A DNA stretch of 12,207 nt from Candidatus Iainarchaeum sp. (GCA_937968065.1 CALBUD010000037.1:1-12207); one strand, 5' to 3'. Counted from the stretch's first letter, positions 2,615 through 12,137 are shown. The notes: generated from the letters alone by a model not told the origin. Translations and numbers: made by a program.

Positions 2615-3010
2615 GTGAATCAAAAAGCACAAGTTAGTTTAGAATATATATTGATTGCACTCGCTATTGTCGTGGTTCTTTCATTAATTATTATGCAAGC
2701 AACTATTCTTTATTCTAAAAATATAAATATTATTGATAATAGAGAGCTTAAAAATACTTTTGAAAAAATTCAAGCAAATTTAGATATTATAGAACTTTTA
2801 GAAAATTATATAGAAGAAATAAATGTATATCCTGAAAAAACTTGGTATTTTGAAAAAATTAATGAAAAAGAAATAAAAATATTTAATGAAAATAAAGAAT
2901 ATTTAATAAATAGTAATAAACCTATTATTTTAAATTTTAGAGAAATAAAAAAAGAAGAAATAATAATTATTAAAAAAGAAAATAATAAGATATATATTGA
3001 ATTAAAATGA
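2615..3010 (+). CDS. Pilin-like protein with class III signal peptide (DUF361-type)
   Basis: GTG start at 2615. The N-terminus MNQKA|QVSLEYILIALAIVVVLSLII repeats the QxSxE pattern of the upstream gene. The rest is a 100-aa N/K/E/I-rich domain with no recognisable motif. Confidence 0.6.
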   Translation: MNQKAQVSLEYILIALAIVVVLSLIIMQATILYSKNINIIDNRELKNTFEKIQANLDIIELLENYIEEINVYPEKTWYFEKINEKEIKIFNENKEYLINSNKPIILNFREIKKEEIIIIKKENNKIYIELK

Positions 3011-3525
3011 ACTTAAATAACTTTTTATCAAAAATTTTATTTATTGGTATAACTATACATGAAATTGCACATGCTTTTGCATGCATTATTCTTGGTGTAA
3101 AAATAAGAAAAGTTAAACTATTAAGTTTTACAGACGGATATGTGGTGCATGATGAGTCAAGATCTTATAAAAATATCATAATCTCTATCTTTCCTTTTTT
3201 TTTTAATATTTTAGTTGCTTTTTTATGTATACTGTTATTAAAAAAAGAGCTTTTAATCATATATAAAGTAATAATTGCATGGTTTGCTATATCAGCTTTG
3301 TTTTTCTCAATACCTTCAAGACAAGATGCAAATAATGTGTTTGCATCTATTAAAAAAAGCTATAGATGGAATCAATCTTTATTAAAATGGCTATATAAGA
3401 TCATATTATTACCATTAACTTTATTTATTTTAATCCTTTCTTGGTTATTTAAAGTATTAGATCAGTCTTTTTTAACAAGATTAGTATTAATTGCCATTTG
3501 GGTTTATGTATTAGTTATTTTTTAA
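3007..3525 (+). CDS. Small polytopic membrane zinc-metalloprotease-like protein (HExxH; M50/site-2-protease-like or DUF3267-like)
   Basis: 172 aa with 4-5 predicted TM helices by eye. HEIAH (nt 3058-3072, residues 18-22) sits in TM1 and is followed by ACIILGVKIRKVKLLSF.DG, resembling the HExxH..G.k....l.p.GG start of M50 proteases. A later IPSRQDANNV segment is a possible degenerate PxxLDG third-ligand motif. The start overlaps the upstream stop as ATGA (3007-3010). Confidence 0.6.
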   Translation: MNLNNFLSKILFIGITIHEIAHAFACIILGVKIRKVKLLSFTDGYVVHDESRSYKNIIISIFPFFFNILVAFLCILLLKKELLIIYKVIIAWFAISALFFSIPSRQDANNVFASIKKSYRWNQSLLKWLYKIILLPLTLFILILSWLFKVLDQSFLTRLVLIAIWVYVLVIF

Positions 3526-5461: not shown

Positions 5462-5502
5462 AAATCTATAATGTAGGGTTTAATTTAAAAAGATTGTTTT
5501 TT

Positions 5503-5519
5503 CTCGGCCACGAGGGGGG
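5503..5519. promoter_or_regulatory. Candidate origin-recognition-box-like element: dyad CTCG-GCCA-CGAG followed by a G-run
   Basis: This is the only GC-rich island in the window (ctcggccacgagggggg). It lies 42-60 nt upstream of the orc1/cdc6 ATG, just distal to a TATA-like TTTTTAAATT on the minus strand. The dyad-plus-G-string layout resembles archaeal ORB elements, but only one copy is present. Confidence 0.3.
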
Positions 5520-5822
5520 TCTAAAAAAGAACCTAAGTTATAAAGACATATTTATTTTACAATTAAGTTTTTTTAAAAAATATAAATGGTGATAAAATAT
5601 GCAAATAATATATAGAAGAGAACTTTCAAGATTTCAAACCACTTTTTTAAATAAAGTTAAAAACACTTTATTAAAAAGAATGGAGATTGGGTATATGACA
5701 AAACCTCATAATTATATGCTTATAGATATTCTAAGTGAAATTGATTCTAGGAAATGTTCATAATAGTTGAAATTATTAAAAATAATAGATATATATACTT
5801 TATAGCTCTATAATATACATAT

Positions 5823-6323
5823 ATGGCAATAAACCAAAAGGCCTTTGCATCTATAATTGTACTTTTGTTTTTATTATTTTTTTCATTTATTATTCTCGAG
5901 AATAAGAGAACAGACATTTCTGATTTTATTATTATTAAGCAGGCTGAAACTAAAAAAGAGAGCATTTATTTAAATTTTGAAACAAACATTAAAAATACTT
6001 TAAATAATTGTGAAGAAGATCCTTTAATAAATAATCTTGAAGTTATTAAAGAGGCTAATAATTTTATAAATAATAGTGACTCTAATTTTTTTATTAAAAA
6101 TATTATTTCTCAAAAAGAAGAAGAAGTTAATATAACATATTTAACTGAAATAATCAAAGTTATTGTATATAAACCTTCAAGAAATATAGTTGTTAAAGAA
6201 GTACATATAACAAACGGATTTTTAAAAAATAAAGTTTTAGGATATACCCTAAATACTAGTAATTACAAAACCACTTTTTTATTTCCAGAAAATTATAGTT
6301 TAAAAAAGGTGATTTTTTGTTAA
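5823..6323 (+). CDS. Pilin-like / class III signal peptide-like membrane-anchored protein, function unknown
   Basis: 166 aa. MAINQKA|FASIIVLLFLLFFSFIIL gives a short basic leader, a small residue, then a roughly 20-aa hydrophobic helix. The rest is N/K/I-rich with 2 Cys. The TATA-like ATATATAC (5791-5798) is spaced for a leaderless transcript. Confidence 0.5.
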   Translation: MAINQKAFASIIVLLFLLFFSFIILENKRTDISDFIIIKQAETKKESIYLNFETNIKNTLNNCEEDPLINNLEVIKEANNFINNSDSNFFIKNIISQKEEEVNITYLTEIIKVIVYKPSRNIVVKEVHITNGFLKNKVLGYTLNTSNYKTTFLFPENYSLKKVIFC

Positions 6324-6559
6324 ATAAAAAAGGAGTGGTATCTATTGAGTTTATTTTTTCATTATTAATTATAATTGTAATTTTGTATTTATTAATCCTT
6401 GTTAACTTAAATTTTAAAAATAAGTTATCTGAAGAAATAAATTATGAAGAATATAATTTTGAAGTTTGTTTTATAAAAGAAATAATTCTCAAAAATAATA
6501 ATGGAGAAATATTAAATGATTTCTGCAAAATCAAAAAAAGGACAAATAATTATAATTGA
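6317..6559 (+). CDS. Small pilin-like protein (KKG|VVSIE class III signal peptide)
   Basis: 80 aa with a TTG start at 6317, preceded by SD AGGTGAT (6307-6313). MLNKKG|VVSIEFIFSLLIIIVILYLLILV has S+3 and E+5 as in the DUF361 motif. Overlaps the upstream gene by 7 nt. Confidence 0.55.
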   Translation: MLNKKGVVSIEFIFSLLIIIVILYLLILVNLNFKNKLSEEINYEEYNFEVCFIKEIILKNNNGEILNDFCKIKKRTNNYN

Positions 6560-6929
6560 TATTTTATTATTTTTAATAATAATTTTATTAATTATTTCAA
6601 TACAAACAAAAATAATTAGAAACTATAAAGAAAATTTATCTTTTCAAGAAAAAGAAATTAATTTTTTAAAAGAAGATTTTTTAATAGAAAATTACTTGCT
6701 TGATTGTAATTACTTAGGTTATTTAGATAAAGATACTAAAAAATGTTATAAAAACAAAATAGAAATTAAAAACATTGATAAAATAGATTACTCAATTTTT
6801 TGTAAATTAAAAATAAATGAAAATATAATTTTTTATATTGAAAATAAAAATAATAAAAAAATATATAAAAGAGCAGCTGTTTTTGAAGACAAATTTACTA
6901 TATTAGAGGTTGAGTTTTGTGAAAAATAA
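6516..6929 (+). CDS. Small pilin-like protein (KKG|QIIIID class III signal peptide)
   Basis: 137 aa. MISAKSKKG|QIIIIDILLFLIIILLIISI. GGAG (6503-6506) lies 9 nt upstream of the ATG. Contains 4 Cys. Overlaps the upstream ORF by 44 nt. Confidence 0.55.
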   Translation: MISAKSKKGQIIIIDILLFLIIILLIISIQTKIIRNYKENLSFQEKEINFLKEDFLIENYLLDCNYLGYLDKDTKKCYKNKIEIKNIDKIDYSIFCKLKINENIIFYIENKNNKKIYKRAAVFEDKFTILEVEFCEK

Positions 6930-7281
6930 AGGAATCATTTTTACAATTGACGGAATTATAGCACTTACATTTATAGCTTTATTTTCAATGATTTTATTTG
7001 TGCCAACCTATGACAACACAAAAGAAATTGAAAAAATTTTAATTAATAACAGAATTTCAGATCTTTTAATAACTGCCCAATTACTTGAAATTGAAAACTC
7101 AAATATTTTAGAACAAAAATTTCAATTACTTTTAGAAGATAAATCAGGATTTATTATTATTAATAATAAAAAAATAGAAATTAATAACAGCCATGAAAAA
7201 ACAAGATTAATTTCACAAAACATAAGATATATTAATAGTTCTAATAAAGAAATATATATTGAAATAGGAGTGTATTATTAA
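6919..7281 (+). CDS. Small pilin-like protein (KNKG|IIFTID class III signal peptide)
   Basis: The ORF track starts at TTG 6910. I prefer GTG 6919 (MKNKG|IIFTIDGIIALTFIALFSMILFV) because GAGGT (6906-6910) is then 8 nt upstream. Either start overlaps the upstream gene. Confidence 0.5.
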   Translation: MKNKGIIFTIDGIIALTFIALFSMILFVPTYDNTKEIEKILINNRISDLLITAQLLEIENSNILEQKFQLLLEDKSGFIIINNKKIEINNSHEKTRLISQNIRYINSSNKEIYIEIGVYY

Positions 7282-8012
7282 TGTTTTATATTGTTGGTAT
7301 TGGTCTTGTTAAAGAACAATTGACTTTAGAAGCCTTAAATGCTATTAAAAAATCAGAAATGGTTTATTTAGATAATTATACAAACATACTTTCACAAGGA
7401 GACGTTATTGATCTTGAAAAAATAATAAATAAAAAAATTAAATTACTTTCAAGAAAAGAACTTGAACAAGAAAAAGAATTTTTGAAAGAAGATTCAGTTC
7501 TTTTAGTTATTGGAAATCCTTTATCTGCAACCACACACTATTCTTTAATTGAAGATTTAAACGAAAGAAAAATAAATTATAAAATCCTTCCAGGAATTTC
7601 TATATTTAACTATAGAGCCTCTTGTGGTTTATTTGAATATAAATTTGGAAAAACAGTTTCAATTGTATATCCTGAAAAAAATTATTTTCCAAAAAGCTTT
7701 TATGAAACTATAATAGATAATTTAAAAATAAATGCACACACTCTTTGTTTACTAGATATAAAAGTTTCAGAAAATAGATATATGTCTGTTTATGAAGCGT
7801 GTGAAATTTTAGAAAAAATAGACTCTGATAAAATATTAGAAAATAAATGGTGTATATTATTTTCAAAAATGGGTTCTTTAAATCAAAAAATAATTTCATT
7901 TAAATTTAAAGAGTATAAAAAATTAATTGAAAATGAAAAACCACAAAGCCTAATTATTTGCTCAGATTTAAATGAATTTGAAAAAGTGAGTATACATGAA
8001 TATAGAATGTAA
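7281..8012 (+). CDS. dphB: Diphthine synthase (Dph5/DphB, SAM-dependent methyltransferase modifying EF-2)
   Basis: Collinear with Pyrococcus DphB as I recall it: MFYIVGIGL...LEALNAIKKSE.VYLDNYT, GNPLSATTH (usually GDPxxATTH), YKFGKTVSIVYPE.NYFP.S.Y..I..N, HTLCLLDIK. AGGAG lies about 10 nt upstream. The start overlaps the upstream stop (TAATG). Confidence 0.93.
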   Translation: MFYIVGIGLVKEQLTLEALNAIKKSEMVYLDNYTNILSQGDVIDLEKIINKKIKLLSRKELEQEKEFLKEDSVLLVIGNPLSATTHYSLIEDLNERKINYKILPGISIFNYRASCGLFEYKFGKTVSIVYPEKNYFPKSFYETIIDNLKINAHTLCLLDIKVSENRYMSVYEACEILEKIDSDKILENKWCILFSKMGSLNQKIISFKFKEYKKLIENEKPQSLIICSDLNEFEKVSIHEYRM

Positions 8013-8283
8013 AAAATATTGTGAGAAATATAGAAAAATTCTAGAAAAAGCAATAAAAACAATAAAAATAAACATAAAAAACGAATCTTTTTTAAAAGAT
8101 GTTTCTAAAGATTATCTTGATATGGCTAAAAATTATTTATCTGATGGAAAGTTTTTAGAAAATAAAAAAGATTATGCAAGAGCACTAGCATCTTACTCAT
8201 ATGCCTATGGATGGATAGATGCAGGAGTTAGAATTGGTTTATTTTATGGAATTGATAATAAAATGTTTACTGTGTACAAATAA
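7996..8283 (+). CDS. DUF357-like small archaeal protein
   Basis: 95 aa, helical. The C-terminal ARALASYSYAYGWIDAGVRIGL matches my recollection of the conserved A.a..YA.GWlDAg.rlG block of the archaea-specific DUF357 family. Overlaps the dphB 3' end by 17 nt. Confidence 0.55.
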   Translation: MNIECKKYCEKYRKILEKAIKTIKINIKNESFLKDVSKDYLDMAKNYLSDGKFLENKKDYARALASYSYAYGWIDAGVRIGLFYGIDNKMFTVYK

Positions 8284-8285
8284 AT

Positions 8286-8792
8286 GTGATTAAAATGAAA
8301 GGAATTTTAAAAAACAGATTTATTGAAATCTATAGCAACAATTTAAAATCTCAATTAATAAACAAAGGATTTGGAAATAAACAAGACAATTATTTAGAAA
8401 TAGATTTTTTTGAAGGGCTTTTTCTTCTTGAAAAAAATAAAATGAAAATATATCTCGATAATAAAATAATTTTAAAAAAAGACTTTATTAGTTATTCTGA
8501 AAAAAAAATAAAAAATTTCAAAGAAAAATATATTGTTTATAAAGATTTTAAAGAAAAAGGCTATATAATTAAAGATGGTGCTATTTTTGGATTTGATTTT
8601 AGAATTTATGAAGGAAAAACTAAAAAACACGAACACACCAAATATGTTGTAGATGTTAAAAAAACACATAAAGATGAGATGTCACAGATAATCAAATCAG
8701 AAAGACTTGCAAACAGTATTAATGCAGAATATGTTATTGCAATTATTGATATGGATCAAAAAATAATAAAAATAAAAATAAAAAGAATTTAA
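8286..8792 (+). CDS. endA: tRNA-splicing endonuclease (tRNA-intron lyase) subunit
   Basis: Aligns by eye to M. jannaschii EndA. YIVYKDFKEKGYIIKDGAIFGFDFRIYEG...HEHTKYVV...RLANSINAEYVIAIID corresponds to YLVYKDLRTRGYIVKTGLKYGADFRLYERG...KEHSVYLV...RVAHSVRKKLLIAIVD. GTG start at 8286, with an alternative ATG at 8295. Confidence 0.85.
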   Translation: MIKMKGILKNRFIEIYSNNLKSQLINKGFGNKQDNYLEIDFFEGLFLLEKNKMKIYLDNKIILKKDFISYSEKKIKNFKEKYIVYKDFKEKGYIIKDGAIFGFDFRIYEGKTKKHEHTKYVVDVKKTHKDEMSQIIKSERLANSINAEYVIAIIDMDQKIIKIKIKRI

Positions 8793-9232
8793 GAACATCT
8801 TGTTTCCCAATAATTAATAGGACACATAGTGTTTCTTATAGTTAATGTTATTGGAGATTTACCTTCATAATCTTCAATTACAAAAAAATCAGATTCTCCT
8901 ATTAAAAGACCTCTTGAGTCTAAAACATCGATGTTTGTCAAATCAATTATATTATCTGCATCTTTTAAAACAACATTAAAATTATAATCTGGTTTAAAAT
9001 TTACTTTTCCAGAATTTACAATACTTACTTGGAATTCATTTTCTAAATTATCATAATCACAAGAAATAAAACTTAAATAAATATTTGTACAATCTTTATC
9101 AATTGCGTTATCAGCTTCAGTTGTATTTTTAGTTATAAAATTAGATCCCCAAGACAAGATAATTGCAATTAATGCTAAAGAAACCACAATTAAAAGAATT
9201 GTTGCAATTATTGGGCTTATTGCTTTTTTCAT
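8789..9232 (-). CDS. Archaeal type IV pilin (archaellin-N-terminal-type class III signal peptide), paralog 1
   Basis: 147 aa. MKKA|ISPIIATILLIVVSLALIAIILSWG matches the A.SPVIATvLLi archaeal pilin/archaellin N-terminal domain. Has 4 Cys, ending CP-x8-CS. Confidence 0.85.
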   Translation of the reverse strand: MKKAISPIIATILLIVVSLALIAIILSWGSNFITKNTTEADNAIDKDCTNIYLSFISCDYDNLENEFQVSIVNSGKVNFKPDYNFNVVLKDADNIIDLTNIDVLDSRGLLIGESDFFVIEDYEGKSPITLTIRNTMCPINYWETRCS

Positions 9233-9257
9233 AAATTTTCACAAGTTTATTATTATT

Positions 9258-9295
9258 AAAAAAAGAAAAGAAATCTTTTTTTAAAAAAAGATTTC
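9258..9295 (-). terminator. Perfect 26-bp palindrome followed by a T-tract downstream of the middle pilin gene
   Basis: GAAATCTTTTTTTAAAAAAAGATTTC (9270-9295) is its own reverse complement. On the minus strand it is followed by TTTTCTTTTTTT (9269-9258). It lies 13 nt after the stop of the 9308..9790 gene. Confidence 0.55.
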
Positions 9296-9307
9296 AATTA
9301 TTTCTAT

Positions 9308-9790
9308 TTAGTTACAATTTGTTTTTGTAGCAACTGCATCTGATGGACAATAACTGGAAATTATTTTAACATCAAATCTAGATGGGTTTGTTGTACCAGG
9401 AAGATCTGCTTGAGCAATACTTACTTGGTGCATTTGTCCAGGAGTTAAATCAGAAGCAAAATCAGCTCCATAGTCACTTAAATTACTATTTAATTCACTT
9501 TCAGAATCTGTAAGGTTTGTTAAGTGAACTAAGAAATCATCTCCTGAAGAGATTGTTTTAGATCCAATGTTTTCTATATAAAATGTTAAATTTCCGTCTG
9601 CATCAACAGAACAGTTAGTTATTTGTACAGCTGAACCCATACATTCTGCATTCACAATATCACTAGTGTCACTTAAACTACTAGTTGTGAATGATTTTCC
9701 CCAAGCAACAACAATTGCAATTAACGCAACTGCAACAACAATTAAAAGAATAGTTGCTATTAACGGAGATATTGCTTTTTTCATTTTCAT
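9308..9790 (-). CDS. Archaeal type IV pilin, paralog 2 (candidate major pilin)
   Basis: 160 aa. MKMKKA|ISPLIATILLIVVAVALIAIVVAWG with an S/T/D/G/A-rich body and 4 Cys, ending CP-x10-CN. SD AGGTGAT (9802-9796) lies 5 nt upstream of the ATG. An alternative ATG is at 9784. Confidence 0.85.
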   Translation of the reverse strand: MKMKKAISPLIATILLIVVAVALIAIVVAWGKSFTTSSLSDTSDIVNAECMGSAVQITNCSVDADGNLTFYIENIGSKTISSGDDFLVHLTNLTDSESELNSNLSDYGADFASDLTPGQMHQVSIAQADLPGTTNPSRFDVKIISSYCPSDAVATKTNCN

Positions 9791-9827
9791 TTTTTATCAC
9801 CTTATTTAATTCATAATATCTTTTTTA

Positions 9828-10298
9828 TTAATTACATCTTGATACAAATGATAATTTATCAGGACAATTAACAACATGAACTTGAACTCTTTTTAAAGGA
9901 GTTTCAAGAGCATCAAAATCTTCATTTTCATTTAATAATGAATCTAAAGACATTGCATTTCCAATAAAGTTTGGACTTATTGAAGTACTTGCTATTTGAT
10001 TATCAGCAGCAATAACTGTTACAATTAAGTTTTGATCAATAGTTATTGTTGATCTATCAAAAACAAACAAACCACTAAACCCTGTTTCAGAATTATAACT
10101 ACATCCTGAATCAATATATATATTGACATTACTACAATCAATCCAGTCAGAAGATGTTTCTGAAACACTTGTTGTTGTATCTCTAAAATTTTGAGAAGAC
10201 CAAGAATATAATATACCTGCTAAAGATAAAGCAACAGCTACTAAAAGAATTGTTGCAATTAATGGAGATAATGCTTTTTTTTTATTTTTTTGAAACAT
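9828..10298 (-). CDS. Archaeal type IV pilin, paralog 3
   Basis: 156 aa. MFQKNKKKA|LSPLIATILLVAVALSLAGILYSW. Has 4 Cys, ending CP-x9-CN. Confidence 0.85.
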   Translation of the reverse strand: MFQKNKKKALSPLIATILLVAVALSLAGILYSWSSQNFRDTTTSVSETSSDWIDCSNVNIYIDSGCSYNSETGFSGLFVFDRSTITIDQNLIVTVIAADNQIASTSISPNFIGNAMSLDSLLNENEDFDALETPLKRVQVHVVNCPDKLSFVSRCN

Positions 10299-10343: not shown

Positions 10344-10374
10344 TTAATATATAAACTATAAGATATATAAACCT
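10344..10374 (-). promoter_or_regulatory. Tandem TATA-box motifs upstream of the pilin genes
   Basis: The minus strand reads AGGTTTATATAT-CTTAT-AGTTTATATAT. That gives two copies of the consensus TTTATATA (10371-10364 and 10355-10348), 50-66 nt upstream of the ATG at 10298. Confidence 0.4.
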
Positions 10375-10409: not shown

Positions 10410-11261
10410 TCACAAAAATATTGCTGAAACTAAAACATATAATGGTACTGAAACACCAACTAAAATTATTGAGTGTCTTACACCAGCAATGGCATTGTTT
10501 TCTGAAATTAAACCAATTGTTGGTCCTGCAAATAAACCTTGAATAACTATTAAATATAAGAAATATTTATTAAAATTTACATCAGACATTCCTGAAGATG
10601 CTTCTGCTCCATCTCCACTTAGGGAAATAGTACTTGAACCTAACATTGGAAGAAAGACTATTTGAATTATTAAAATAATTGCAATAAAAACAAAGAACAT
10701 AAAATAACTTGAAAAGACTGTAGAAAAAGTTTTTGATTTTCTTTCATCAACCATATCATTTAATGTTTTAACATAATCTGAAATTGAAGCAAATATTTTA
10801 ATAATATTTCCACCAACTTTATTTGTTTCTGAGATGATTTGAGTAACTTGTTTAAAGACAGGACTATCAATTTCGCCAAAAACTTCATTTAAAGCAACAT
10901 CAAAAGGAATTCCTATTTTTATTTGTGCAGCAACTCTTTTTATTGGAACATTAAGATGACCATAATCGTGTTTTGAAGCAACCTCAACAGCAGTTACAAT
11001 ATTCATACCACTTTGTAAAAGATCTTTTAAATCATCTAAAAAAACATATAAATTTTTTTCATAAGATTTAATTCTTGCAGTATATAATCTAGATGCAAGA
11101 CCTATTGATAAAAGAAATGGAAATATTGAAAAAATTAAATATTTAGTATTCATTAATAAAACAAAAAAGATTATTGAACCTACAAGACCATAAACTATAT
11201 AGTCTACAAAATATCTTTGTTTTTCAGATAAATTAATACCCAATTCTTTTTTTAAATCCAT
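10410..11261 (-). CDS. Type IV pilus platform protein, T2SS-F domain, equivalent to the C-terminal half of FlaJ/PilC (TadC/EpdK-like)
   Basis: 283 aa. N-terminal TM helices, then a cytoplasmic helical T2SSF-like block FLDDLKDLLQSGMNIVTAVEVASKHDYGHL...IKIGIPFDVALNEVF...ISETNKVGGNI, then C-terminal TM helices. Confidence 0.85.
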   Translation of the reverse strand: MDLKKELGINLSEKQRYFVDYIVYGLVGSIIFFVLLMNTKYLIFSIFPFLLSIGLASRLYTARIKSYEKNLYVFLDDLKDLLQSGMNIVTAVEVASKHDYGHLNVPIKRVAAQIKIGIPFDVALNEVFGEIDSPVFKQVTQIISETNKVGGNIIKIFASISDYVKTLNDMVDERKSKTFSTVFSSYFMFFVFIAIILIIQIVFLPMLGSSTISLSGDGAEASSGMSDVNFNKYFLYLIVIQGLFAGPTIGLISENNAIAGVRHSIILVGVSVPLYVLVSAIFL

Positions 11262-11267
11262 TTTTTA

Positions 11268-12137
11268 TCAACCACTAACTAAGTTTAAAATTGCAATAAA
11301 TCCAATATTAATAATTGGAACTAAAAGAAAAACACCAATTTGTAAAACTGTACCTATACCTAACCCTGCAATTCCACCACCAACCATTCCTAGAAGCATA
11401 ATTCCAGAAAATAAAAATAATGGTCCTGCAACAACAATTGCAGAATAAATATCACCAAATGTTTCTGCTTTTTGATTTTGGTTGTTTAATAATAAATTAT
11501 ATTGAAATCTTGCATGTTCTGCTTTTTTTTTCATAAACTCTGGTAAAGAACCACCTGCTTCTATGCTTGATTTTAATTCTAATAAAAATTTTTTAAGTTC
11601 AAAAGAAGGTGTTTTTCTTGCAGCAATATCAATTGCTTCTAAAAGAGAAATACCTAGAACATTTACATAATATAAAATTTTTGAAAATTCTTTATCTAAA
11701 TATTGACTTTTATCTTTAACGGTTTTTGTTGAAAAAATTGAAATTGGAGGGGCTCCTGATTCTGCAACACTTGACATTCCGATAATTGCTAAAGGAAGAG
11801 TATTTTTTATGTTTGAAACTTTAGAGCCTATTAATAAATAAGGGTTAACTATACTATAACCAATAAATGCAATAAAAATAGATAGAGATGCAATAATTAC
11901 TAGCTTTAAACCAATTACTTCTGGAACTAAAATACTTGCAACAAAACCAAATAATAAAAATAATAAAAAAATAAATACAGCAAAAAATATTTTTTTTGAA
12001 AAATAAAAATCAATATCTTCAGTTATGTCTGCTTGATCTAAAGCTTCTTCGAAATCATCTGAACGTAAGTTTCTAGTAATGGGTATAAATAAACTATAAA
12101 GTTTTTCTTCAAAACTTTTTTTCTTTTTTGGAGTCAT
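11268..12137 (-). CDS. Type IV pilus platform protein, T2SS-F domain, equivalent to the N-terminal half of FlaJ/PilC (TadB/EpdJ-like)
   Basis: 289 aa. LPLAIIGMSSVAESGAPPISIF...LGISLLEAIDIAARKTPSFELKKFLLELKSSIEAGGSLPEFM matches the tPS...fl..l...i.sGG.l..f signature of the first FlaJ repeat. Flanked by TM helices. Confidence 0.85.
   Translation of the reverse strand: MTPKKKKSFEEKLYSLFIPITRNLRSDDFEEALDQADITEDIDFYFSKKIFFAVFIFLLFLLFGFVASILVPEVIGLKLVIIASLSIFIAFIGYSIVNPYLLIGSKVSNIKNTLPLAIIGMSSVAESGAPPISIFSTKTVKDKSQYLDKEFSKILYYVNVLGISLLEAIDIAARKTPSFELKKFLLELKSSIEAGGSLPEFMKKKAEHARFQYNLLLNNQNQKAETFGDIYSAIVVAGPLFLFSGIMLLGMVGGGIAGLGIGTVLQIGVFLLVPIINIGFIAILNLVSG

Follow-up and report, generated by a model that had tools for sequence, protein, structure and literature searches.

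What is to be made of three adjacent genes whose products share an almost invariant beginning and the same four cysteines, with cores between them that cannot be aligned by eye? The question is raised by a stretch of DNA of 12,207 nucleotides from Candidatus Iainarchaeum sp. (GCA_937968065.1 CALBUD010000037.1:1-12207), which we call the window; it is AT-rich (G+C about 18-29%) and carries on its minus strand a tandem trio of open reading frames (ORFs), P1, P2 and P3, of 147, 160 and 156 amino acids. A sequence-only reading of the window had proposed pilin paralogs with hypervariable cores, under diversifying selection or with different binding specificities, held by local disulfide staples at either end of the globular part, and with similar 5' ends that might seed recombination among the genes. 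Our analysis leads to a different picture. What the window carries is a type IV filament locus of the ordinary archaeal sort rather than a system of hypervariable adhesins, and the likely explanation as a whole is that P1, P2 and P3 are old type IV pilin-like paralogs, linked to a platform protein, in which an immunoglobulin (Ig)-like domain is clamped by cysteines.

The earlier description of the three proteins themselves holds. All of them begin KKA[IL]SP[IL]IATILL, the N-termini of P1, P2 and P3 reading KKAISPIIATILL, KKAISPLIATILL and KKALSPLIATILL in that order, and each has exactly four cysteines, at positions 48, 58, 137 and 146 in P1, 50, 60, 148 and 159 in P2, and 55, 66, 145 and 155 in P3. 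The layout is the same throughout, with C1-x9/10-C2, then 78, 87 and 78 residues in P1, P2 and P3, then C3-x8-10-C4, one more residue and the stop. This pattern is far beyond chance: cysteine makes up 2.5-2.7% of P1-P3 as compared with 0.66% of the 15 other proteins of the window, a roughly fourfold excess, and all four cysteines are invariant across 42 homologues of P2. Among the homologues of P3 (70 found, 66 aligned) C1, C2 and C3 never vary and at least 90% have C4, while the orthologues of P1 in 17 genomes have four cysteines in every case.

That the three are pilin paralogs, as had been claimed, is borne out by two kinds of evidence. The model for the N-terminal domain of archaellins and type IV pilins, TIGR02537, scores 24.5 bits in P1, 26.8 in P2 and 35.9 in P3 against a cut-off of 20, and each protein shows a class III signal peptide, reading KKA followed by ISPIIATILLIVV and similar. 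Moreover, two platform genes, with one T2SSF domain each, lie immediately upstream of P3-P2-P1 on the same strand, giving the genomic linkage that goes with type IV pilins. Other pilin models stay below their cut-offs (UpsA of NCBIfam at 26-33 bits against 130; Pilin_N, PF07790, in P1 only, at 17.1 against 25.2). Among solved structures the P2 profile finds its best sequence match in the flagellar-like type IV pilin of P. calidifontis (8fk7, E 9.5e-4), with weak matches to the archaeal pilins 8rey, 8gi2, 5kyh and 9myg, and the similarity to known archaeal pilins is essentially N-terminal only. As part of the explanation just given, we regard it as likely that P1, P2 and P3 are archaeal type IV pilin-like proteins built of a class III signal peptide, a hydrophobic helix and a beta-sandwich of Ig or fibronectin type III (FN3) kind. 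We also note that many metagenomic proteins of 300-1100 amino acids (P0076-P0191) share only the KKA-ISPLIATILL-type N-terminus, over profile positions of about 3-50, and the same pilin-type signal probably serves to display them as large adhesin-like proteins.

Are the cores hypervariable? Each paralog has 1:1 orthologues in related genomes, so that its rate of change can be set beside that of its neighbours. Amino acid identities to the relatives L001, L002 and L004 are 72, 56 and 72% for P3, 63, 48 and 60% for P1, and 52, 43 and 53% for P2; the corresponding values are 72, 53 and 72% for the neighbouring diphthine synthase (Dph5), 71, 57 and 72% for Cdc6, and 63, 55 and 60% for the tRNA-splicing endonuclease EndA. 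P3 is as conserved as the housekeeping proteins Dph5 and Cdc6, P1 is comparable to EndA, and only P2 evolves faster, at a level with the neighbouring small pilin-like ORFs. The ratio of non-synonymous to synonymous divergence (dN/dS, by the Nei-Gojobori method) is 0.07-0.44 over whole genes, inside the range of the neighbours, and 0.14-0.68 in the core alone (C2 to C3), never above 1; dS is saturated in the more distant pairs, and the reliable values are those for L007/L004 and for the L001/L006/L007 comparisons. In the closest pair, L007/L004, core dN/dS is 0.14-0.16 and the cores are 95-98% identical. We thus rejected hypervariability and diversifying selection, both on the comparison of orthologues with housekeeping neighbours and on dN/dS by gene and region. 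By these measures the cores appear to have diverged anciently under purifying selection.

The paralogs themselves are 28-33% identical overall and about 20% identical in the core. The remark that the cores are unalignable by eye is fair as far as it goes, but when profiles of the globular parts only are compared the cores prove to be homologous, with a probability of 99.4% for P1-P2 (E 7e-22), 94.8% for P1-P3 (E 5e-8) and 68.6% for P2-P3 (E 5e-5). The paralog cores would then differ because the triplication is ancient, not because diversification is ongoing.

The trio belongs to an array that is conserved across a lineage. Homologues come from groundwater and subsurface metagenomes, in metagenome-assembled genomes (MAGs) named Candidatus Iainarchaeum, 'ainarchaeum' and Ca. 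Forterrea multitransposorum; the lineage is Candidatus Iainarchaeota of the kingdom Nanobdellati, formerly DPANN. Over at least 10 kb the gene order of the window recurs in contigs of 671 kb, 688 kb and 36 kb, running T2SSF, T2SSF, P3, P2, P1, EndA (convergent), DUF357, diphthine synthase, four small class III-like ORFs, Cdc6 and PCNA. A hidden Markov model scan of 24 loci places the array in about 18 Iainarchaeota genomes, always as platform-platform, followed by a single gene of P3 type, between one and three of P2 type and a single one of P1 type; P1-type proteins have 147 amino acids in close relatives and 146-159 over the whole survey. Every complete gene of the three types encodes four cysteines, or six in two cases, the count always being even. 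The four-cysteine frame is thus conserved well beyond the window, in the P2 and P3 homologues and in the complete array genes of these genomes.

Arrays of similar form occur elsewhere. The Woesearchaeota contig L025 carries a three-gene array of four-cysteine pilins with wider cysteine spacing, and near-identical arrays, encoding proteins of 162, 176 and 172 amino acids with four cysteines each, are found in L025 and in L024, a contig labelled as a Methanosarcinales MAG. The sequences suggest that L024 is a mis-binned DPANN contig or DNA of an associated symbiont.

We now turn to the predicted fold. The AlphaFold2 model of P2, built from 42 homologues, has a mean predicted local distance difference test (pLDDT) score of 87.6 and consists of a helix (8-42) and seven strands; that of P3, from 66 homologues, has a pLDDT of 83.7 and follows the same plan, with a helix at 12-56 and then strands. 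The sandwich has seven to eight strands in the two models. A helix followed by a beta-rich domain is therefore indicated for P2 and P3 by model and for P1 by its profile match to P2. In a Foldseek search the best PDB matches of the P2 model are the soluble domains of FlaG and FlaF of S. acidocaldarius (E 5e-5 to 3e-4, TMt 0.52-0.68), followed in the list by generic Ig-like sandwiches. For the P3 model the FN3/Ig resemblance is weak, nothing falling below E 0.08.

If the four cysteines form disulfides, which of them pair? The sequence-only reading had joined sequence neighbours, C1 with C2 and C3 with C4. A search of 1.84 billion representatives with the P2 profile returned 1827 matches, 143 of them at E 1e-10 or better, and all homologues of 120-200 amino acids gathered were aligned to the P2 profile, so that joint losses of cysteines could be read off. 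Within this set 61 proteins have all four cysteines, and 16 more are four-cysteine proteins whose last cysteine was trimmed from the alignment. No homologue in the P2-profile alignment has only C1 and C2 or only C3 and C4. Exactly C1 and C3 are present, by profile alignment, in three 50%-identity representatives (P0136, P0192 and P0185). The two-cysteine protein P0140 has C1 and a C-terminal cysteine placed like C3, outside the profile alignment; P0126 has C1, C3 and one odd cysteine, and P0164 a similar three-cysteine layout by position. The assignment to C1 and C3 in the two-cysteine homologues is confirmed by the sequence context, x-G-A coming after C1, and proline or a polar residue after C3, which stands about 11-13 residues short of the C-terminus. 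A further search, seeded with P0136, led to a large subfamily in the Aenigmarchaeota in which C1 and C3 are kept in 117 of 117 proteins, 111 of which have just those two cysteines, and this argues that C1-C3 is a self-standing pair. C2 and C4, to judge from the alignments, are present or absent together.

The models can be read alongside these losses. The first strand of the P2 model covers 54-61, with C1 five residues ahead of it and C2 inside it; the last strand covers 152-158, again with a cysteine, C3, five residues ahead, and ends at C4. The last strand of the P3 model, at 145-152, opens with C3, and C4 comes three residues after its end. Since an extended strand of 6-8 residues spans about 20-27 Å, a C3-C4 bond would be incompatible with this arrangement and a C1-C2 bond would be unlikely. 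In sandwiches of the Ig/FN3 type one edge has the first and last strands lying parallel, which would bring C1 beside C3 at one end of the strands and C2 beside C4 at the other. From the pattern of losses and the models together we consider it fairly likely that the bonds are C1-C3 and C2-C4, a pair of non-local disulfides by which the first strand is clamped to the last. We found no description of such a conserved double cysteine clamp in the literature searched on Forterrea, Diapherotrites or DPANN pilins with conserved cysteines. The matched spacing of C2-C1 and C4-C3, which agree within one residue in the window trio and within two to three across the Iainarchaeota, was treated as weak evidence for a strand ladder given the spacings of Woesearchaeota-like relatives, which are 12 against 17-20, or 17-18 against 13-16.

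The similarity of the 5' ends requires a separate explanation. Over 47 nucleotides counted from the KK codons, P2 and P3 match at 40 positions, as the earlier hand alignment had it, P1 and P2 at 39, and P1 and P3 at 38; the 18-nucleotide run reported as common to P1 and P3, ATTGCAACAATTCTTTTA, is indeed identical and lies in an exact run of 20. More broadly, the three 5' ends form one direct-repeat family of 116 nucleotides, at 72% and 64% identity. Could they have seeded gene conversion? Among P1, P2 and P3 we see no signal of it, and we rejected it on the finding that the 96-nucleotide 5' segments of the three genes from seven genomes cluster by paralog type and not by genome; third-position identity is 0.54 within a genome and 0.50-0.52 between genomes. 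The nucleotide similarity in the window is instead explained by selection on the helix together with AT-biased codon usage.

However, the suggestion was not without substance, because something of the kind is seen in relatives. Adjacent P2-type duplicates in three of them (L017, L018 and L022) have a dS of 0.08-0.13 over the first 34-36 codons and of 1.2-1.4 in the core, a contrast with a Fisher p of 2e-6 to 6e-5. The first 60 or so codons of the L017 and L018 duplicates are 92-94% identical within a genome and only 76-78% between genomes. In both of these genomes one P2-type copy has an extra cysteine pair (six cysteines), and these copies are orthologous to each other. Such patterns indicate concerted evolution of the 5' 105-180 nucleotides by gene conversion in the P2-type duplicates of the three relatives.

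How could proteins of this kind work together? Homology, synteny, conservation, purifying selection, the predicted fold and the joint losses of cysteines are what the data show; that the signal peptide is cleaved, that filaments assemble, that disulfides form and which part each subunit plays we infer along the following lines. P1-P3 would be ancient paralogous prepilins, encoded directly downstream of a two-gene platform protein, and their short lysine-rich leader would probably be cut by a class III signal peptidase after KKA. The mature hydrophobic helix ([IL]SP[IL]IATILL...) would pack into the filament core, and we propose this packing as the reason why the N-terminal helix is near-invariant. 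The filament surface would be made up of the C-terminal domains, each about 110 residues long and an Ig/FN3-like beta-sandwich of the archaellin/FlaF/FlaG type. Of the four cysteines, C1 would precede the first strand, and C2 would follow inside that strand's segment or immediately beyond it, according to the paralog; C3 would sit ahead of the last strand or where it starts, and C4 where it ends. With both bonds made, the two strands would be held to each other at either end, so that one edge of the sandwich is closed. Each old copy would keep its own conserved role.

What might these roles be? P2 seems the best candidate for the major, abundant and exposed subunit, because of the Shine-Dalgarno-like AAGGTGAT before its start codon, the hairpin at its 3' end, its variable copy number, its fastest evolution and its highest density of N-x-S/T sequons. 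It has four such sequons, and the density per asparagine is 0.29 in P2, 0.16 in P3 and 0.11 in P1. A hairpin and T-run follow the P2 stop codon in six of six genomes (the window, L001, L002, L006, L007 and L014); the stems are unrelated in sequence and the structure is kept, with z-scores against shuffled sequences of -3.8 to -4.3 in four genomes and -2.0 in L001. P3 and P1 would probably be specialised or minor subunits. The conserved block upstream of P3 (Table 1) may serve as an archaeal promoter for P3-P2. A scan for sigma-70 promoters and bacterial terminators, uninformative for an archaeon, gave a single 'terminator' match, inside the P2 coding sequence.

A number of observations weigh against the scheme of clamped, filament-forming pilins. 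The pairing was derived from co-loss patterns and secondary-structure strings, not from Cys-Cys distances, and in anoxic groundwater, the source of the relatives, disulfides cannot be taken for granted outside the cell. The best structural matches, FlaF and FlaG, are not filament subunits, and a non-filament, membrane-anchored role is possible for at least one of the proteins. In the window itself the hairpin after P2 is not significant (z -1.4), and a system-1 (Epd-like) pilus could have as its true major subunit a short pilin encoded at 2409-2600, described below. Finally, no secretion ATPase and no A24-type prepilin peptidase were found in the 12.2-kb window or in about 8 kb on either side in L001, L002 and L004, and so the machinery is incomplete as seen at the locus; upstream of the platform genes these three relatives have a DRG-type GTPase (MMR_HSR1 + TGS) and a methyltransferase, and no ATPase. 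As a separate observation, pilus genes in these reduced genomes are dispersed among genes of replication and translation, such as those for Rad50, PCNA, Cdc6, Dph5 and EndA.

How strong, then, are the alternatives? The structural matches raise the idea that at least one of the three is a FlaF/FlaG-like, membrane-anchored pseudo-periplasmic protein, a stator or envelope anchor that does not polymerise. Besides FlaG and FlaF standing at the top of the P2 Foldseek list, there are weak profile matches to ArlG and ArlF (E 4.5e-4 and 2.8e-3), some homologues are named 'FlaG/FlaF family' by the Joint Genome Institute (JGI), and P3 is unusually conserved, with a distinct and more polar helix (nonpolar fraction 0.57 over 35 residues). 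Yet the ArlG and ArlF scores of 20.2 and 17.8 bits are far under the cut-off of 110, the canonical class III motif is above the TIGR02537 cut-off in all three proteins, and there are no FlaH, FlaI, FlaX or FlaCDE genes in the neighbourhood. Moreover, the fold is common to FlaF, FlaG, archaellins and pilins and hence does not discriminate among them. On balance we find an anchor or stator role unlikely. That the proteins are archaellins, and the locus a reduced archaellum for swimming, strikes us as very improbable, even though P2 matches Arch_flagellin (PF01917) over residues 7-145 with E 4e-5, the platform halves match the ArlJ/FlaJ models best, and the closest solved relative is called a 'flagellar-like' pilin. 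With 24.4 the Arch_flagellin match falls short of the gathering score of 29.5, and neither P1 nor P3 matches the model at all; the ArlJ scores are 59 and 73 bits against cut-offs of 400-550; and FlaH, FlaI, FlaF, FlaG and FlaX genes are absent from the flanks of the locus in the genomes examined. In addition, archaellins usually have 200 amino acids or more, and proteins of 147-160 are shorter than that.

The remaining alternatives concern the cysteines and the cores. In an anoxic habitat the four cysteines might bind metal or stay free thiols, forming no disulfides; the relatives do come from groundwater and subsurface metagenomes, Ca. Forterrea was reportedly described from an anoxic aquifer, and we identified no oxidative-folding enzyme, although no thiol oxidoreductase was looked for. 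Against this, C1 and C3 on the one hand and C2 and C4 on the other would be kept apart by the length of an extended strand of about ten residues, which makes a single four-cysteine site implausible, and the spacing is not of the CxxC type usual for metal knuckles. The cysteine counts are even, with extra cysteines coming as a pair in the six-cysteine copies of L017 and L018, and the two-cysteine subfamily is invariant for C1 and C3, two thiols making a poor metal site. We give metal binding or free thiols hardly any weight. As for local C1-C2 and C3-C4 staples around a hypervariable core, with recombination among the three genes via their 5' ends, this reading has in its favour the four-cysteine frame with conserved ends round divergent cores, the rate of P2, the fastest-evolving gene of the block, and, if one looks to the relatives, the homogenised 5' ends of P2-type duplicates. 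But the orthologues are in fixed order, core dN/dS is below 1, the cores are homologous by profile and the 5' segments of the three genes group with those of their own paralog type, while the absence of homologues with a local pair only, the Aenigmarchaeota proteins that keep C1 and C3, and the strands that would separate the proposed partners all favour pairing of C1 with C3 and C2 with C4. For the window this reading is largely refuted, and as a whole we judge it quite unlikely. We thus return to old, clamped pilin-like paralogs as the preferred explanation.

The coordinates on which this explanation draws are collected in Table 1. The platform protein is split over two genes, for the first ORF resembles the N-terminal half of FlaJ/PilC and aligns with positions 10-241 of the 555 in the ArlJ model, and the ArlJ and UpsF matches of the second ORF are confined to the C-terminal halves of those models.

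Table 1. Features of the pilin-like locus and of duplicated P2-type genes in relatives (window positions unless a contig is named).
Feature	Position	Strand	Remarks
Split platform protein, first half	11268..12137	-	Pfam T2SSF E 8.6e-10, 39.1 bits vs cut-off 25.2
Split platform protein, second half	10410..11261	-	Pfam T2SSF E 6e-17, 62.2 bits vs cut-off 25.2
Conserved block AAGAAGATAGGTTTATATATCTTATAG upstream of P3	10356..10382	-	near-identical in window, L001 and L007; surrounding spacer differs
TATA-box-like TTTATATA within that block	10364-10371	-	
P3, 156-aa pilin-like protein	9828..10298	-	first in array, always single-copy, most conserved of the three
P3 5' segment, copy 3 of 116-nt repeat	10168..10283	-	64% identity to P1 copy
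P3 Cys codons	10134-10136, 10101-10103, 9864-9866, 9834-9836	-	
Shine-Dalgarno-like AAGGTGAT, 5 nt upstream of P2 start codon	9796..9803	-	conserved in window, L001, L007 and L002
P2, 160-aa pilin-like protein, candidate major subunit	9308..9790	-	fastest-evolving; 1-3 copies in relatives
P2 5' segment, copy 2 of 116-nt repeat	9669..9784	-	72% identity to P1 copy
P2 Cys codons	9641-9643, 9611-9613, 9347-9349, 9314-9316	-	
Perfect palindrome GAAATCTTTTTTT/AAAAAAAGATTTC, then T-run, just past P2 stop	9258..9295	-	terminator-like or 3'-end-stabilising hairpin
P1, 147-aa pilin-like protein	8789..9232	-	last in array, always single-copy
P1 5' segment (class III signal peptide and hydrophobic helix)	9117..9232	-	reference copy of 116-nt direct-repeat family
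P1 Cys codons	9089-9091, 9059-9061, 8822-8824, 8795-8797	-	
Tandem P2-type duplicates in relatives	L017 7038-7526 / 7558-8031; L018 7022-7477 / 7496-7954; L022 6499-6978 / 7003-7476		

The rest of the window holds further genes of pilin type. A second pilin-like cluster, with its trio syntenic in L001 and L002, lies at 2409-2600, 2615-3010 and 3007-3525, all on the plus strand. The first of its genes encodes the short pilin mentioned above, which has 63 amino acids and a Q+1 class III signal peptide but lacks a globular domain; a PF04021 score of 26.7 bits against a cut-off of 23.7 and a weak Flp1_like match mark it as EpdE/Flp-like. The second encodes a class III protein of 131 amino acids and the third an M50B-like HExxH membrane protein. 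Further on, four overlapping small ORFs (5823-6323, 6317-6559, 6516-6929 and 6910-7281, plus strand) have class III-like N-termini, NQKA/F.., NKKG/VVSIE.., KSKKG/QII.. and KNKG/IIFTID.., the slash standing at the presumptive cleavage point. They have no significant Pfam or NCBIfam match, their synteny is kept at 31-59% identity, and, placed as they are between Cdc6 and diphthine synthase, they have the look of a set of minor pilins.

The convergent genes for P1 (minus strand) and EndA (plus strand) overlap by 4 nucleotides at 8789-8792, their stop codons sharing the palindrome TTAA; the same overlap is found in L001 and L004 and not in L002. Replication-origin repeats were sought in the spacer upstream of Cdc6 (5462-5822), where nothing convincing was found, and the window has no tRNA genes.

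Why should such a locus matter? DPANN archaea depend on physical contact with their hosts, and their surface filaments are almost uncharacterised. What emerges here is a pilin module of phylum-wide extent, made of a split platform, one conserved P3, one to three fast-evolving P2 and one P1, and it offers both a structural prediction that can be tested, the closing of one sandwich edge by C1-C3 and C2-C4, and a candidate major subunit in P2. Should the disulfides prove real, these anaerobic minimal cells must be able to oxidise thiols outside the cell. The 5' conversion in the relatives, for its part, shows how pilin copies can retain an assembly-competent helix while their cores drift. Going further, one may speculate that P3-P2(xN)-P1 is a DPANN-specific, three-component, double-disulfide-clamped filament for attachment to the host, whose P2 types diversify by duplication and 5' conversion. 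We regard this as doubtful, but were it true, it would imply an as yet unknown extracytoplasmic route of oxidative folding in minimal, mostly anaerobic symbionts, and a cassette-like change of the exposed P2 core with assembly competence kept.

It remains to place the locus among known systems. A two-gene platform marks 'system 1' (Epd-like) of the archaeal type IV filaments (TFF), found in methanogens and DPANN, and some DPANN 4A systems also have a two-gene platform (bioRxiv 10.64898/2026.04.22.720090). In having such a platform the P1-P3 locus resembles system 1, of which the Epd-like pili of Methanococcus maripaludis are an example (see also Makarova et al. 2016), and the likeness extends to the many different pilins, to the short Flp/EpdE-like pilin in the same region (2409-2600) and to the occurrence in DPANN. 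The locus differs from system 1 in that neither an ATPase nor a dedicated peptidase of the EppA/EpdA type is adjacent to it, and in that the N-termini of P1-P3 are of the +1 I/L, S-P type and not of the Q+1 Epd type. We take the locus to be a candidate for either system 1 or 4A, its likeness to these being by the two-gene platform.

Two further comparisons can be drawn. FlaF and FlaG (ArlF and ArlG) of Sulfolobus acidocaldarius (4p94, 5tuh, 6pbk) likewise combine an N-terminal membrane helix with a beta-sandwich, but they are only 15-17% identical to P2, the P1-P3 locus has no archaellum operon around it, and P1-P3 add the class III motif and the four cysteines. By analogy, the bacterial type IVa pilins with a disulfide-bonded C-terminal D-region, and the antigenic variation of Neisseria pilE/pilS, offer a conserved helix, a variable surface domain, a C-terminal cysteine pair and gene conversion between pilin copies, the last recalling the homogenised 5' ends of the P2-type duplicates in relatives. 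However, the bacterial globular domain is non-homologous and its disulfide is local, whereas the pairs of P1-P3 are probably non-local, and P1-P3 have no silent cassettes and show no evidence of diversifying selection.

The closest comparison is with the archaeal type IV pilins as a class (Aap and Ups of the Sulfolobales, PilA1-6 of Haloferax, and those of Pyrobaculum; 8fk7, 8fj5, 6w8u-type), with which P1-P3 share the class III signal peptide, the helix, a small beta-sandwich, several paralogs per locus and linkage to a platform. The Pyrobaculum pilins also have an intramolecular disulfide, and a single one (PMC7347861, PMC10334743). In P. arsenaticum the bond Cys80-Cys139 ties a C-terminal extension to the domain and has been read as an adaptation for thermostability, while the lineages that carry P1-P3 are mesophilic-looking DPANN archaea of groundwater. 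Where Pyrobaculum has one cysteine pair, P1, P2 and P3 have two conserved pairs.

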